This document shows, one piece after another, positions 1,885-63,292 of a DNA stretch of 64,000 nt. Both the position numbers and the translations under genes were made by a program. Numbering within the stretch: the stretch's first letter is position 1; each line of letters starts with the position of its first letter. Under the pieces are notes generated by a model, which made no database searches, was not told where the DNA came from, and saw nothing but the letters and a program-made list of their open reading frames with translations. The stretch is from an uncultured Thermodesulfobacteriota bacterium (lineage in GTDB: Bacteria > Desulfobacterota > Zymogenia > Zymogenales > Zymogenaceae), in contig CAZIWT010000001.1 of assembly GCA_964542895.1 (NCBI GenBank), forward strand, positions 30,573 to 94,572, written 5' to 3'.

Positions 1885-3021
1885 TCATTTTAATCCGGCC
1901 GTAACATCTATCACGGCCGCCGCCACCCTCTCCACCTCACCGTCCGTCAGCGTCGGGTAGATGGGAATCGAGACGTCCTCCCCAAACGCCCTCTTCGTCC
2001 CCGGGAGCTCCCCGTCCCCTGTATATTGCCCCGTATATTGATATAGGGGCTTGAAGACGGGCCTCCTGGCGGCTATCCCCCTCTTCTCCAGCTTCTTGAT
2101 GACCACCTCGACCGCCCCCGCCGTCTTTACAATAAAGCGGTAATTGATATCATCCCCCGCCGGGGGCTCTTGGGGCATCGGTATCGAGGCCCTCTCGAAC
2201 TCCTTTCGGTAGTAGGCGGCTATCTCCCTCCTCCTCGATATAAAGGCATCGAGTTTTTCAAGCTGGCTTCTTCCCAGCGCCGCCTGGAACTCGGTCATCG
2301 CGTAGTTAAACCTCGTCCCACTCTCCTCCCTCTCGTCGTATATGATGAGGTCTCGAATCTCGTCCGTTATCTCCCCGTCTCCTGTGCAGACCATCCCCCC
2401 CCGGCCGGTGGTCATTACCTTTGTGGCGTAAAAGGAGAAGACCGAGACGTCGCCTAATGTTCCCAGGGGACGCCCCTTGAATGTGCCCCCCGTCGCCTGG
2501 GCGCAGTCCTCGACAACGGGAAGCCCCAGGGATTTAATCTCGTCCACAGGTGCCGACCTCCCGAAGGGGTGGACGGCGATAATAAACGTCCTCCCCCCCT
2601 TTTCCCCCCTCCCCCCCTTGATAGACTTAAGGGCATCGGCGAATTCTTTTTCGCCGGAAACCCCCGTGTCCGGGTCGACGTCGGCGAGTACCGGCAAAGC
2701 GTCCACGTATCTGACGGCGTTCAAAGGGGCCGCGCACAGATAAGCCGGTAGTATTACCCTGTCGTTTACCCCGACCCCCAGCGCAACAAGCGCCAGGTGG
2801 ATTGCCGCCGTTCCGGAATCGACCGAGACGGCGCCACCGGAGCGTATCCCCATCCTCTTTTCAAAGGCCCTCTCGAAGGCGGCCCTCTCATCCCCCACGG
2901 TCAACATCCCTGACCTGATCACCTCGGCCGCCCTTGAGGCATCTTGTTCGTCGATGGACGGGCGGGAGTGGGCAATGACCCCTTCTTTCTTTTTGCCCCC
3001 TTTTTCCGATTGAACGATCAT
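1885..3021 (-). CDS. DegT/DnrJ/EryC1/StrS-family PLP-dependent sugar aminotransferase
   Basis: 378 aa with the ...VFSFYATKVMTTGRGG... lysine region (SxxxxK PLP site) and DegT-like N-terminal fold motifs. Confidence 0.85.
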   Translation of the reverse strand: MIVQSEKGGKKKEGVIAHSRPSIDEQDASRAAEVIRSGMLTVGDERAAFERAFEKRMGIRSGGAVSVDSGTAAIHLALVALGVGVNDRVILPAYLCAAPLNAVRYVDALPVLADVDPDTGVSGEKEFADALKSIKGGRGEKGGRTFIIAVHPFGRSAPVDEIKSLGLPVVEDCAQATGGTFKGRPLGTLGDVSVFSFYATKVMTTGRGGMVCTGDGEITDEIRDLIIYDEREESGTRFNYAMTEFQAALGRSQLEKLDAFISRRREIAAYYRKEFERASIPMPQEPPAGDDINYRFIVKTAGAVEVVIKKLEKRGIAARRPVFKPLYQYTGQYTGDGELPGTKRAFGEDVSIPIYPTLTDGEVERVAAAVIDVTAGLK

Positions 3022-3034
3022 ACCGATGTTAAAT

Positions 3035-57676: not shown

Positions 57677-58003
57677 TTATTCGGCGTCGTCGCCGAGGTC
57701 TTCGATGTCGGGACCCTTCGGGAGCTCCTTCTCGACTCCGGGCTTCGCCTCTTCCTTCATGATCGACGGCGAGCCCACGTCCACCGAGAAGTAGGCGAGG
57801 GTCAGACTCGTGAGCATAAAGACCACGGCGGCGATGGTTGTAATCTTGTTAAGAAAGGTCGCCGGCCCGGAGCTTCCGAAGAGGGTCTGGCTGGACCCCC
57901 CGAAAGCGGCGCCCATATCGGAGCCCTTGCCGGTCTGCAGAAGCACGATAAGGATCAGGGCAAAGCACACTATAACGTGAAATGCCGTTATGATCGCTGT
58001 CAT
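57677..58003 (-). CDS. secG: preprotein translocase subunit SecG
   Basis: 108 aa, two TM helices, LLQTGKG...G-rich SecG signature. An AGGAG RBS is 7 nt upstream. Confidence 0.85.
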   Translation of the reverse strand: MTAIITAFHVIVCFALILIVLLQTGKGSDMGAAFGGSSQTLFGSSGPATFLNKITTIAAVVFMLTSLTLAYFSVDVGSPSIMKEEAKPGVEKELPKGPDIEDLGDDAE

Positions 58004-58206
58004 TGTATTCTCCTTTTGCCTTTTAATATCCCCGATCGAGCGACCGGGAATAAAATATCAAGATGTCTTTATATCTCATCTGGGGTGCCTTTTACCGCCC
58101 CCACGGGATGGAAATTCAAATTAGTAAGTTAAATCCCTTAATCAAACTGATGGCCCCCTCTCTCCCTGCTTCTCTCACACCTGACATCCCCCTTCCCCCT
58201 TACAGG

Positions 58207-60169: not shown

Positions 60170-60346
60170 AACCTTTTTCCTTAAAAACAATTCAAATTTA
60201 TATCCGCTTCAAGATCAACCTCGATCTCAATAAACCACCGATCCCCCCCACAAAATCCCCCCTTCAATCCGAGACAAACCGAACTTTTACCACACGCCCA
60301 TTAATAACCAGATTCAAGTATCCTCGGTGACCCCGCGGCCTTGGGC

Positions 60347-61354
60347 CTAAAGTTTCTCCCCGACGTAGCCCGCGAGATCGACAAGCCTCTCGCTGTAGCC
60401 GCTCTCGTTGTCGTACCAGGCTATCACCTTAACCAGCCCCCCCTTGATTACGGAGGTGAGCTTTGCATCGAAGATGGATGAATAGGGAGAGGACTGATAG
60501 TCGATGGAAACCAGCTCCTCATCGGTGTATTTTACGATCCCCTTCATCTTTCCGTCGGCGGCGCTTTTGACGGCTTTGTTTATCTCGTCCGCCCCCGCTT
60601 CTTTGCTTAACTGGGCGGTGAAATCGATCAGCGACACATTGGGCGTGGGAACACGAAGGGCCATCCCGTCGAGCTTTCCGGAAAGCTCCGGGATCACAAG
60701 AGAGACGGCCGCCGCGGCCCCCGTGGTCGTAGGGACGATGGAAAGCGCCGCGGCCCTTCCGCGCCTGAGGTCTTTGTGGGAGCCGTCCAGGATGCGCTGA
60801 TCCATCGTGTATGAGTGGACGGTGGTCATAAGCCCCCGCTCGATTCCGAAGCCGTCGTTGATAATCTTGACGACCGGGGCAAGGCAGTTCGTGGTGCACG
60901 AAGCGTTCGAGATGACGTGGTGGGATTTCGGGTCGTATATATCTTCGTTTACGCCGATTACTATGGTTGAGTCCACGTCCTTTCCCGGCGCCGCGATCAA
61001 GACCTTTTTCGCCCCCGCGGCTAGGTGTCCTTCCGCCTCGGCCCGCTTTCTGAATTTACCCGTCGATTCGAGCACGATATCGGCTCCCAGATCGCCCCAC
61101 CCAATCTTCGCGAGGTCACCGGTCTCCCGAACGATGGCGATCTTCTTGCCGTCGACGGTGATGGAGTTATCATCGTATTTGATCTCCTTGTCGTAGACGC
61201 CGTGGATGGAATCGTATTTCAAAAGGTGGGCCAGTACCCTGGACTCGGCACGGCTGTTTACGGCGACAACGTCGATATTTTTTCTGTCGAGAATAATCCT
61301 TAGACAATACCTTCCTATACGACCGAAGCCGTTTATTCCAACTTTCAAATCCAT
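60347..61354 (-). CDS. gap: glyceraldehyde-3-phosphate dehydrogenase, type I
   Basis: MDLKVGINGFGRIGR..., ...ASCTTNCLAP... active-site Cys. Start at an internal ATG preceded by GGAGGGAG; the longer track ORF is an upstream read-through. Confidence 0.92.
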   Translation of the reverse strand: MDLKVGINGFGRIGRYCLRIILDRKNIDVVAVNSRAESRVLAHLLKYDSIHGVYDKEIKYDDNSITVDGKKIAIVRETGDLAKIGWGDLGADIVLESTGKFRKRAEAEGHLAAGAKKVLIAAPGKDVDSTIVIGVNEDIYDPKSHHVISNASCTTNCLAPVVKIINDGFGIERGLMTTVHSYTMDQRILDGSHKDLRRGRAAALSIVPTTTGAAAAVSLVIPELSGKLDGMALRVPTPNVSLIDFTAQLSKEAGADEINKAVKSAADGKMKGIVKYTDEELVSIDYQSSPYSSIFDAKLTSVIKGGLVKVIAWYDNESGYSERLVDLAGYVGEKL

Positions 61355-61640
61355 ATTACTCCCTCCAAAAAGAAAATATATATCATATCTCTTTTTATCA
61401 GTCAACGATAAAAAAGCGGTTAACTGAAGGGGGGAATTATTTGTCTCAATCCTTTTTCCCAATAGACACCTCTTGAAAATCCATATTTTATAGTTAGGAG
61501 AGTGAGGAACGGAAAAACAGGGCAAGATTGAAACATTGAAGCGGAAAACAGCGAACAGAACAACGGAGTAAAGGAGAAATGTAGAAACAAAAAACCTCGA
61601 ACCGGGGATCGAGATTCGAAAGTTGAAGGATTTACCGTCG

Positions 61641-61845
61641 GGGGGGGTGGGGGGGGGAATCTACTTCCCATTATTTTTCACCCGTTGAAGCAATATCTTT
61701 ATTAGATTAGGAGGGTTGAATAATTAAAGGAACGGATTTACAGAGCAAAAATCATAGTAACACAGCAACACAACAATAAGGTAACAAAGAATTGGAACTG
61801 GGGGGAGGTGGGAGGGTGGGGTGGGGTGTGGGGGAGACCTCTTTT
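61641..61845. repeat. two homopolymeric/poly-G tracts (G8TG9 at 61641-61659; GGGGGGAGGTGGGAGGGTGGGGTGGGGTGTGGGGG at 61801-61835), each followed by related ~30-bp segments; the second copy forms the 3' end of the small gene at 61846..62103 and the first is a decayed partial duplicate
   Basis: Direct reading: ...ccattatttttcacccgttgaagcaatatcttt vs ...tttttttcccgttgaggcgatatcttcg. On the minus strand the first copy translates ...KDIASTGEK* and the gene terminus reads ...HEDIASTGKKQK*. Confidence 0.6.
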
Positions 61846-62103
61846 TTATTTCTGTTTTTTTCCCGTTGAGGCGATATCTTCGTGCACAAAGCCGACCAGC
61901 TTACCGGAGAAATCCAGGATTTGACCCAGGTCATACCCGCTTTTCTTCAGCTCCCGGTACATCGTCTTGGCAAGGAGATCCATTCCCTTGGAGTTCCCGT
62001 TGGCGCAGTTATAGACGGCCCCGTTACCGACAAGTTTACCTTTTCCGTTAACCTTGCCGTTAACCGATTTTTTCACTTCCACTCTTTTGCTGTCTGCAAC
62101 CAT
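61846..62103 (-). CDS. small Lys/Gly/Asn-rich basic hypothetical protein (85 aa)
   Basis: MVADSKRVEVKKSVNGKVNGKGKLVGNGAVYNCANGNSKGMDLLAKTMYRELKKSGYDLGQILDFSGKLVGFVHEDIASTGKKQK. No recognisable family. Lies downstream of the sirtuin gene on the same strand. Confidence 0.45.
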   Translation of the reverse strand: MVADSKRVEVKKSVNGKVNGKGKLVGNGAVYNCANGNSKGMDLLAKTMYRELKKSGYDLGQILDFSGKLVGFVHEDIASTGKKQK

Positions 62104-62262
62104 ATTTTATTGAAGAACTCCTAAAAAAAACTGCCGCCACCTCTGGTCTTATATAAAGCAAAATACTTGCCAAAACTCTTATCTTTTTGCAAATAATATA
62201 TCAGTGATTTCAGCCATTTAGGGAAGTCCGGATAAAGCGTTAAATTTTTAGATGAGTTTTAT

Positions 62263-62299
62263 GTCACAACTGACACAATAGTGTGTCTATTCTGACACA
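62263..62299. promoter_or_regulatory. cluster of GTCACA/GACACA half-sites including perfect palindrome GACACA-atag-TGTGTC; candidate operator between sirtuin and the small basic protein gene
   Basis: Read directly: TGTCACAacTGACACAatagTGTGTCtattcTGACACA. Confidence 0.45.
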
Positions 62300-62319: not shown

Positions 62320-63147
62320 TTAATGTTTCTTCTCCTTCATAAGGACCTTTACCTCCTTGACTATTTCCGGAAGTATTGTGCCGACCTTGCCCTGGATCAG
62401 GTAGTCAGACACCCTTCCCGTCAGCTGTGTAGGCTCATCGTTGACCTCGATGATCACGGCACCGACGTTCATGGAGGGCTCCGTTACCGATGTGGAGAAG
62501 AACCCGCCGCCCTTCTTTGCAACGAAGGGAAGCTCGGCCGCCGGATAGACCAAGGCGGAGGTCCCGGCGACTATCATCACGTCAGCCTTTTTCGACTCGG
62601 CAATCGACCTCTGGAGCGCCTCCGGCGGGATCGGCTCCCCGAAGAAGACGGCGTCCGGCTTTAAAATTCCCTCACACTTTTTACATCTCGGGGGCAGCCC
62701 CGACCTTTCTATCAGCTTTTCAACCTTGTCAAGGGGGTATTGCCGGGAGCAGCTGATACAGCGGGCAAACATGAGGTTCCCGTGAAACTCTATGACGTCT
62801 TTGCTCCCCCCCTTCTGATGGAGGTTGTCCACGTTCTGGGTGATGACACACTTAATGAATCCGAGCTTCTCCAGCTCCGCAAGGGAGGTGTGAGCCGGGT
62901 TCGGGTTCGCCTCCGCCATGTCCAGATCGCCCTCCTGCTTCATCTTGGTGCTCATCTCCCATATCCTTCTCGGGTTCGAGATGAAGCGGTCGTACATGAA
63001 CTCCATCGGATCGTATTTCTCCCAGAGGCCGCCGGGGCTTCTGAAGTCGGGGATTCCGGACTCCGTAGATATACCCGCTCCGGTCAGCACCACCACGTGC
63101 TGGGCTCCGTAAATATCCCAGGCCGCCCTTTTTATCAGGTTTTTCAT
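62320..63147 (-). CDS. NAD-dependent protein deacylase, Sir2 family (CobB-like sirtuin)
   Basis: VVLTGAGISTESGIPDFRSPGGLWEKYDP, a Zn-ribbon CxxC...CxxC (CISCSRQ...CKKCEG) and ...GTSALVYPAA... Start at an internal ATG with a GAGGAG RBS. Confidence 0.88.
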   Translation of the reverse strand: MKNLIKRAAWDIYGAQHVVVLTGAGISTESGIPDFRSPGGLWEKYDPMEFMYDRFISNPRRIWEMSTKMKQEGDLDMAEANPNPAHTSLAELEKLGFIKCVITQNVDNLHQKGGSKDVIEFHGNLMFARCISCSRQYPLDKVEKLIERSGLPPRCKKCEGILKPDAVFFGEPIPPEALQRSIAESKKADVMIVAGTSALVYPAAELPFVAKKGGGFFSTSVTEPSMNVGAVIIEVNDEPTQLTGRVSDYLIQGKVGTILPEIVKEVKVLMKEKKH

Positions 63148-63292
63148 CTCTAAAGCTCCTCTAAATAGTTTCCACTTCAAAGAATTATCACAGAGAGGCG
63201 ACTATGACAAGGGAAAACTTAAACGGCGGAAAAGAGAATCAAGCCGTTTTGAATATCAGTCCGCTGTTTTAACAACAAATTTGTTTAGGACC

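Follow-up and report, generated by a model that had tools for sequence, protein, structure and literature searches.

Rho-dependent terminators carry rut sites, of which those of lambda tR1 and trp t' are examples. Other C-rich or G-rich sequences and other paired segments of bacterial genomes have been described in different contexts. Simple-sequence poly-G/C tracts constitute contingency loci in Neisseria, Haemophilus and Campylobacter, tandem segmental duplications arise by slipped-strand mispairing at microhomology, and C-rich seeds are carried by small RNAs such as RoxS/RsaE of Firmicutes and the 6C RNA of Actinobacteria. Over 70-80 nt, a rut site is rich in C, poor in G and unstructured (PMC6407284, PMC9160355), and the regular spacing of C every 11-13 nt is the criterion applied by RhoTermPredict (PMC6407284). 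Prediction based on composition over-calls, RhoTermPredict giving 23,930 predictions in E. coli (PMC6407284), and the binding strength of a rut site does not set termination efficiency in vivo (PMC9160355).

The locus considered here lies in a window, by which we mean the whole 64-kb stretch of DNA that was analysed, from an uncultured Desulfobacterota lineage. Every gene in this part of the window is encoded by the minus strand; read in the sense of transcription, a SIR2-type deacetylase gene comes first, followed by an 85-aa gene, an intergenic region, gap, pgk and tpi. The elements of this layout are as follows.

about 62320-63150, minus strand: SIR2-type deacetylase gene, upstream neighbour of the 85-aa gene
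61846..62103, minus strand: small conserved gene of 85 aa (from the ORF list), whose 3' end is the duplicated part
61355-61845: intergenic region of 491 bp between the 85-aa gene and gap, holding both G-rich tracts
60347..61354, minus strand: gap (from the ORF list), which heads gap-pgk-tpi and has the whole feature upstream of it

The identical gap protein in other assemblies carries the Pfam domains Gp_dh_N and Gp_dh_C. A preliminary description of this DNA had placed one G-rich tract in a region of ~490 bp upstream of gap. The region is indeed of that size (491 bp), but both tracts are inside it, at these positions.

61640..61657, minus strand: tract A, C9AC8 (plus-strand G8TG9), starting 13 nt past the stop codon of a gene-end relic
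61800..61834, minus strand: tract B, a 35-nt block (GGGGGGAGGTGGGAGGGTGGGGTGGGGTGTGGGGG on the plus strand) with 28 G in 35 nt

The start-to-start distance between them is 160 bp, in agreement with the two G-runs ~160 bp apart of the preliminary description; the sequence that it gave for tract A is correct, while the start that it gave, 61641, falls 1 nt inside the tract, which begins at 61640. On the minus strand tract B reads C5ACAC4AC4AC3TC3ACCTC6 and begins 11 nt beyond the small gene's stop codon. The plus strand serves as template for this gene; there the successive G-runs of tract B are 6, 2, 3, 3, 4, 4, 1 and 5 nt long, and the six runs of at least G3 (6, 3, 3, 4, 4, 5) make it a G4 motif, while the G8TG9 of tract A can be divided into four G3 runs. 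The tracts had been taken as G4 motifs from the outset, with a G4Hunter prediction proposed as a check. By sequence both are indeed G4-competent, and with a 25-nt window the tracts score +2.68 and +2.84, the top two plus-strand G4Hunter scores in the 64-kb window; the quadruplex option of ViennaRNA also places quadruplex layers in both. A larger absolute G4Hunter value occurs in the window only at 2583-2629, inside a coding region; this extreme was considered as a related feature and rejected, being coding sequence of a DegT-like gene.

What distinguishes these tracts statistically is their density. Nowhere else in the window does a single base, G or C, occupy at least 15 of 18 or at least 24 of 35 positions, and densities of 17/18 or 28/35 were reached in 0 of 300 first-order Markov simulations. 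Plain G7 runs, on the other hand, are not enriched in the window (38 observed vs 38.75 expected). The peculiarity resides in the size and the pairing of the tracts, G-runs as such being ordinary in this GG/CC-rich genome. Many G7 and C7 runs are tolerated by the genome, some of them inside genes. Tandem Repeats Finder detected a periodicity of 5 and 12 nt within tract B and nothing else. No Rfam family was found for the tracts, either over the whole window at the gathering threshold or over 61300-62200 at E-values up to 10; across the Rfam scans only a distant tRNA and noise appeared.

Low-complexity sequence of this kind can be mis-joined or collapsed during assembly, and such an artefact could be suspected here from Logan contigs that end inside both tracts: one ends at 61821, within tract B, and another from a different run (L021) starts at 61652, within tract A. 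These contig breaks fit read dropout as well as heterogeneity. However, about 5 kb around the locus, tracts included, are base-for-base the same in the window and in one assembly each from ENA and JGI, and for this reason we do not regard the sequence as artefactual. In addition, the two duplicated units described below are ~30% diverged with indels, which assemblers do not create, and a homologous tract is present in relatives, whereas the preliminary description had named absence from relatives as a sign of assembly artefact. Altogether there is next to no chance that the tracts are an assembly product. Assemblies of different samples, three of them full-length and two partial, agree on the tract sequence at the level of consensus as far as they reach, with contigs breaking in the tracts. 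A practical lesson is that short-read assemblies break at these tracts.

The two tracts belong to a larger repeated structure, whose parts are the following.

61671..61700, minus strand: relic of the last codons of the small gene, KDIASTGEK* (AAA GAT ATT GCT TCA ACG GGT GAA AAA TAA)
61699..61879, minus strand: duplication unit 1, with the small gene's terminal ~11 codons and its stop codon, then tract B and a spacer of about 100 nt
61488..61698 (end ~61488), minus strand: duplication unit 2, comprising the relic, tract A, an extra segment of ~50 nt with a hairpin, and a spacer

The 3' end of the live gene reads, on the minus strand, GAA GAT ATC GCC TCA ACG GGA AAA AAA CAG AAA TAA, followed by 11 nt and tract B. 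The relic sits about 180 nt beyond this gene end, and C9AC8 follows 13 nt later. Since an in-frame TAA lies three codons upstream of it, the relic is non-coding; within DIASTG it differs from the live copy at three places, all of them third codon positions. Over 19 nt, 61681-61699 and 61862-61880 are 89% identical, in accordance with the related sequence, reading KDIASTGEK* in the upstream copy, that the preliminary description had seen next to each tract. It had taken this for a decayed duplicate of 12 codons. A duplicate it is, but its extent was underestimated: the homology spans the whole spacer, over ~190-210 bp. The 'footprint of recombination' listed there among the possible roles was in this sense well seen, if understated, the footprint being a two-unit tandem duplication of about 190-210 bp.

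Local alignment of unit 1 with unit 2 scores 92, compared with 28.5 +/- 4.6 for shuffled sequences (n=300, maximum 43), and the spacers alone, once gene end and tracts are removed, still score 52 vs 29.7 +/- 5.1, a value reached by 0 of 500 dinucleotide shuffles. The units are adjacent, in the same orientation and alignable over their full length beyond chance; they have diverged by roughly 30%, with several indels. BLAST of the intergenic region against the 64-kb window returned no further copy; a dispersed repeat or mobile element was considered and rejected, no second location having been found in the window. We are therefore confident that tracts A and B are paralogous copies of a single C-rich element, paired by a tandem duplication of ~190-210 bp. 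Their paired look is a product of duplication and not a designed two-part motif. The junctions lie at A/T-rich A(G)ATAT microhomologies, away from the tracts, and the duplication probably arose by slippage between these short sequences. Afterwards, the copies diverged by substitutions, indels and changes in run length, to give the present relic stop with C9AC8 downstream of the real stop with its 35-nt C-block.

The position of the junctions bears on another view of the tracts, namely that they act as DNA structures, with plus-strand G-quadruplexes or C-strand i-motifs blocking RNA polymerase or stalling replication; stalled replication could also have provoked the duplication. Both tracts do have the sequence of G4 motifs, with the G4Hunter scores (2.68 and 2.84) and ViennaRNA quadruplex layers given above, the short-read contigs of two runs break inside each of them, and in vitro, transcription output is known to change according to how a G4 motif is oriented with respect to the template (PMC7341879). 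On the other hand, the junctions are at the A/T-rich microhomologies and not at the tracts, and Illumina dropout at homopolymers explains the contig breaks equally well. Moreover, G4 potential adds no independent evidence, because it comes automatically with any C-rich rut-like tract. A role as DNA structure appears improbable to us.

Comparison with related genomes, which had been proposed in order to locate the duplication boundaries, indicates that the duplication is specific to the window among the genomes compared. In the relatives L004, L018 and L005, the duplicated segment is single-copy, with one gene end and one tract or none, and the intergenic regions are shorter (358, 346 and 295 bp, respectively, vs 491 bp here). 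L004, whose small protein is 82% identical, has one gene end followed from 10 nt past the stop codon by C8AC4ATCTCGC7, with no duplicate, and it is with this tract that tract B aligns after the stop codon. A C7 run is found 15 nt past the stop codon in L018, and C6 and C4 runs near the stop codon in L019; the L011 contig ends 2 nt past the stop codon, with CC. In the distant relatives examined, the inspected 3' flank has no C-runs of at least C4. When the intergenic regions of the window, L004 and L018 are aligned, only the C-tract by the stop codon and the gap promoter with its ribosome-binding site are alignable. Since the nearest relatives have a single tract and the distant ones have none, we consider the tract as inherited and fast-evolving, and its pairing as the result of a later duplication. 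Judged from these alignments, the element is a C-rich, G-poor tract situated 10-15 nt past the stop codon of the small gene, conserved in position and fluid in sequence.

The gene to which this element is attached is itself conserved. It displays a coding score of +0.38 bits/codon in frame, and its family counts at least 18 homologous clusters from uncultured Desulfobacterota (Deltaproteobacteria), which share across the 18 clusters the invariant core KGMDLLAKTM..ELK.SGYD.GQILDFSGKL..FVH. In every relative with enough sequence, it lies between the SIR2 gene and gap. The protein has a disordered Asn-Gly-rich N-terminus and a C-terminal part predicted as a two-helix hairpin, with AlphaFold pLDDT > 90 over residues 40-80. 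Searches of the small protein against Pfam, NCBIfam and PDB sequences, and with Foldseek against the PDB, returned nothing usable. Two members of the family, P0004 and P0005, carry tandem duplications at the N-terminus.

Signals for expression around the intergenic region comprise two promoters of different types, a pair of palindromes and a hairpin.

62157..62172, minus strand: sigma-54-type promoter of the small gene, TGGCAAGTATTTTGCT, the sole TGGYA-N6-TTGCW match in the window
62260..62299, minus strand: two 18-bp palindromes TGTGTCA-N4-TGACACA, spaced 22 bp from centre to centre and preceding the sigma-54-type promoter by about 100 bp
61377..61405, minus strand: sigma-70-type promoter of gap, TTGACT, 17-nt spacer, TATATA, with TG at -15/-14
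61583..61617, minus strand: terminator-like hairpin with U-rich tail, GAAUCUCGA-UCCCCGGU-UCGAGGUUU, starting 22 nt downstream of tract A

The sigma-54-type promoter is also conserved in L004, L018 and L005, and together with both palindromes it is conserved in four genomes, one of them distant. The palindrome has 4 strand matches vs 0.05 expected, and its copies are presumed to be sites for an enhancer-binding protein. We consider the neighbouring conserved small protein, with its predicted sigma-54 dependence and its place between the SIR2 deacetylase gene and gap, as a more interesting lead than the tracts themselves. Going with transcription, the gap promoter comes 235 bp after tract A. Its block is conserved in L004 and L018, and similar TTGAC...TGGTATATAAAA blocks occur in distant relatives; a strict consensus scan does not list it in the window but lists the equivalent sites in L004 and L018.

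The hairpin, from 61617 to 61592 on the minus strand, has a 9-bp stem and an 8-nt loop, then the U-rich tail, in which 9 of the first 10 nt are U when counted from the closing U residues of the stem. This fits the layout of an intrinsic terminator, a stem-loop followed by a U-run, and the free energy of -9.6 kcal/mol is similar to that of another terminator-like hairpin in the window. The hairpin is located within the ~50-nt segment missing from unit 1. L004 and L018 have no equivalent of it, a terminator scan having found no sense-strand terminator-like site there between the small gene and gap.

An open reading frame of 83 aa (61420-61671) begins 13 nt ahead of tract A, which in this frame would encode poly-proline. 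At -0.42 bits/codon the frame is without coding signal; the gene calls of other assemblies omit it, and relatives have nothing equivalent. This frame bears on the idea, raised in the preliminary description, of a contingency-type regulation in which slippage in C9AC8/G8TG9 would switch gap or the overlapping frame on and off by phase variation. Homopolymers of 8-9 nt are long enough to slip and the 83-aa frame overlaps tract A. However, this frame is non-coding by its score, the tracts are neither in a real ORF nor in a core promoter spacing, tract A lies 235 bp upstream of the conserved -35 element of gap and beyond the terminator-like hairpin, and the tract sequence does not differ among the three full-length and, as far as these reach, the two partial assemblies. 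This position, the lack of a real ORF over tract A and the identical consensus sequences lead us to reject contingency control of gap, and we see phase switching at this locus as extremely unlikely. The tracts provide no evidence for phase variation of gap.

We turn to the composition of the transcript. The 3' flank of the small gene contains 34 C and 9 G in 80 nt (34 C and 8 G in the first 78 nt past the stop codon), which makes it the extreme case of the 28 gene flanks with at least 60 nt of intergenic sequence behind them. In most of the other flanks G equals or exceeds C, and several have ordinary hairpin-plus-T terminators; a genome-wide habit of C-rich 3' flanks was thus rejected, the flank of the small gene being an outlier. 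Over 78 nt the C/G ratio reaches a maximum of 5.8, above any other minus-strand-sense value in the window, and C exceeds G in all sampled 78-nt segments with start offsets up to about 340 nt past the stop codon. The first 78 nt contain 28 YC dimers. A regular expression for six C at 11-13 nt spacing gave no match in the intergenic region, where at most five consecutive ones could be placed by hand.

Both tracts are unpaired in the predicted minimum-free-energy and centroid folds. Fold z-scores against shuffled sequences are -0.14, -0.86 and +2.94, the last one being that of the whole small-gene mRNA, which folds worse than 100 of 100 shuffles. Two structural roles were considered and rejected: for a transcript reading through into gap, the predicted fold does not show the C-tracts sequestering the gap ribosome-binding site, and pairing between the 5'UTR and the 3'UTR of the small mRNA is predicted as only a weak 5-bp contact. 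No ribosome cover of this region is expected, because the overlapping frame lacks coding signal.

The reading that we prefer, and to which we would give a probability of about 0.4 as a whole, is that of a duplicated, inherited C-rich 3'-flank element serving as a termination zone. In the mRNA of the small gene, the tracts would form a long unstructured stretch with C > G, free of ribosomes once translation has stopped. Such a composition would load Rho, and the hairpin with its U-run would come after the second tract. Tracts and hairpin together could then constitute the termination zone of the sigma-54 transcript, insulating the separately promoted gap-pgk-tpi. The G4 potential of the template strand would be a consequence of the same composition, unneeded by this model. 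A role of Rho is plausible from the composition of the RNA, although no rho gene is evident in the 64-kb window; a Rho-dependent terminator between the small gene and gap, one of the roles suggested in the preliminary description, would agree with this composition and with the predicted lack of structure. As to the function proper, Rho loading combined with an intrinsic terminator ahead of gap, the composition, the position and the two promoters suggest it, and we put it forward tentatively, at somewhat less than an even chance. Several points count against termination: the over-calling of composition-based prediction, the absence of a match for six C at 11-13 nt spacing, a hairpin that is missing in L004 and L018 and sits in the segment absent from unit 1, C-runs in relatives that may be due to mutational inertia of homopolymers and not to selection, and the many G7 and C7 runs of this genome.

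The whole may also be a functionless by-product, in which C-runs built and maintained by slippage in a GG/CC-rich genome were paired by a neutral tandem duplication at a duplication-prone locus, with termination, if any, ensured by the hairpin alone, or read-through into gap. We estimate this to be nearly as likely as the termination role. G7/C7 runs occur at the frequency expected from dinucleotide content, also within genes; run lengths and interruptions differ freely among the two copies and the L004 tract; other tandem duplications exist in the family (at the N-terminus of P0004 and P0005, and apparent by eye in the L018 intergenic region); and neither an RNA family match nor a structure signal is found. 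A neutral origin does not easily account, however, for the position and strand polarity after the stop codon, kept in the four close genomes with a flank that was read (the window, L004, L018 and L019) while the remaining intergenic sequence is unalignable, nor for a polarity that is the reverse of what most other 3' flanks of the window show. The size of the tracts was also unmatched in the 300 Markov simulations.

Alternatively, the end of the transcript could be used as a regulatory RNA. Tract A, hairpin and U-tail are arranged as in a 3' UTR-derived small RNA with a C-rich seed; or else the tracts, of which B contains CACCUCC, would mimic the anti-Shine-Dalgarno sequence. In both cases the RNA would bind G-rich ribosome-binding regions, those of the gap-pgk-tpi-secG mRNA being an example. 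A single-stranded C-run does precede the terminator hairpin by 22 nt, the gap-operon spacers carry G5-G7 runs in the mRNA sense, and the predicted sigma-54 control of the host gene would make the synthesis conditional. A duplex scan over all minus-strand windows nevertheless revealed no specific target, the gap-pgk spacer ranking about tenth and the best matches being coding; tract A and the hairpin are missing from relatives, and there is neither an Rfam match nor a conserved structure. Regulation by such a 3' UTR RNA is in our opinion very unlikely. A stronger version, in which a poly-C RNA module on the sigma-54 transcript, duplicated here into a version with a terminator of its own, is selected in this clade for an action beyond termination, as a 3'-UTR small RNA or an anti-Shine-Dalgarno sponge, is very doubtful indeed. 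Such a module would titrate the G-run-rich ribosome-binding spacers of gap-pgk-tpi-secG or of many mRNAs in the genome and, if true, would couple a sigma-54 signal to glycolytic gene expression.

Returning to the termination zone, how does this locus compare with the systems mentioned at the beginning? It shares several features with rut sites. The RNA is C-rich, G-poor, predicted to be unstructured and ribosome-free right after a stop codon, C exceeds G over at least 70-80 nt, a possible pause or termination hairpin lies downstream, and the element is placed between two separately promoted transcription units. On the other hand, typical rut sites are diffuse whereas the C content here is far more extreme and homopolymeric, six C at 11-13 nt are not found, the element is duplicated, and its Rho dependence is putative. 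If the termination reading is true, the locus would provide an unusually clean natural case of a near-homopolymeric poly-C site for Rho loading in an uncultured Desulfobacterota lineage, where a housekeeping glycolytic operon is insulated from a conditionally fired sigma-54 promoter. The example would be illustrative, adding conceptually nothing.

As in contingency loci, the 8-9-nt G/C homopolymers could slip in principle, but here they are outside any real ORF and any -35/-10 spacer, and the assemblies display no length variation. With RoxS/RsaE and 6C RNA the transcript has in common single-stranded C-runs upstream of a terminator hairpin; unlike these RNAs, it has no Rfam match, no conserved stem-loops presenting the C-runs and no specific G-rich target. 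The paired arrangement echoes the tandem duplications due to slipped-strand mispairing, with head-to-tail units, A/T-rich microhomology at the junctions, a truncated relic of a gene end and a single copy in relatives. What sets it apart is the extreme C-tract within the duplicated segment, together with copies that are already ~30% diverged. The features at this locus belong to already known kinds.

Two Logan short-read contigs from different runs match this locus and have an end exactly within the two diverged tandem copies of the tract between the small gene and gap: L003 ends at window position 61821, in tract B, and L021 begins at 61652, in tract A. Both tracts are spanned by the Megahit and JGI assemblies. 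In the related locus L018, the stretch that separates the small gene from gap carries an internal direct repeat of its own, spotted by eye (CAATTGTTT...AAATTGAGTCC, at 2884-2925 and 2981-3022), which suggests that this intergenic region duplicates repeatedly within the clade.

Other readings of the tracts involve an open reading frame and signals on the opposite strand:

61420-61671, minus strand: 83-aa ORF starting 13 nt upstream of tract A, with the tract read as poly-proline
61642-61669, plus strand: terminator-like site on the antisense strand of tract A, from terminator scoring
61830-61842, plus strand: the same type of site, on the antisense strand of tract B
2781-2760 of L004, a relative's locus: the same type of site, on the antisense strand of its tract

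The ORF was judged spurious, given its coding score of -0.42 bits/codon and the lack of a gene call for it in other assemblies. The antisense signals, present in both tract copies of the window as well as in L004, share one layout, in which the G-run is paired via G-U pairs to a short CT-rich stretch, followed by a T-run. Since there is no upstream gene on the plus strand for which a terminator would be required, they are probably a by-product of an A-rich gene end adjoining the C-tract.

The C-rich 3′ flank of the small gene is opposite in polarity to the spacers of the gap-pgk-tpi-secG operon. In mRNA sense, these spacers have a markedly high G content and contain runs of five to seven G (G5-G7):

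60235-60270, minus-strand sense: G-rich stretch
58175-58200, minus-strand sense: G-rich stretch
flank after the gene 57677-58003, minus-strand sense: G-rich stretch

G equals or exceeds C in most 3′ flanks of the window. The top absolute G4Hunter score of the window (-3.2) lies elsewhere, at 2583-2629, within a minus-strand DegT-like aminotransferase gene where it codes for a KGGRGEKGGR-type insert.

The small protein belongs to an uncharacterised family (P0001-P0018) found in metagenome-assembled Desulfobacterota genomes, with no relative in Pfam, NCBIfam or PDB. Its members combine a low-complexity, Asn-Gly-rich N-terminal tail with an invariant C-terminal part predicted as a two-helix hairpin (pLDDT >90), and P0004 and P0005 display tandem duplications at the N-terminus, start codon included. 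In every case with flanks available, the gene has a SIR2 deacetylase gene on one side and gap-pgk-tpi on the other. Upstream of the small gene, the window carries:

62157-62172, minus strand: sigma-54-type promoter TGGCAAGTATTTTGCT, the single match within the 64-kb window
62260-62299, minus strand: two 18-bp palindromes TGTGTCA-N4-TGACACA, ~100 bp upstream of this promoter

The promoter and both palindromes are kept upstream of the small gene in four genomes (the window, L004, L018 and L005). This conserved arrangement makes the small gene look dependent on an enhancer-binding protein.
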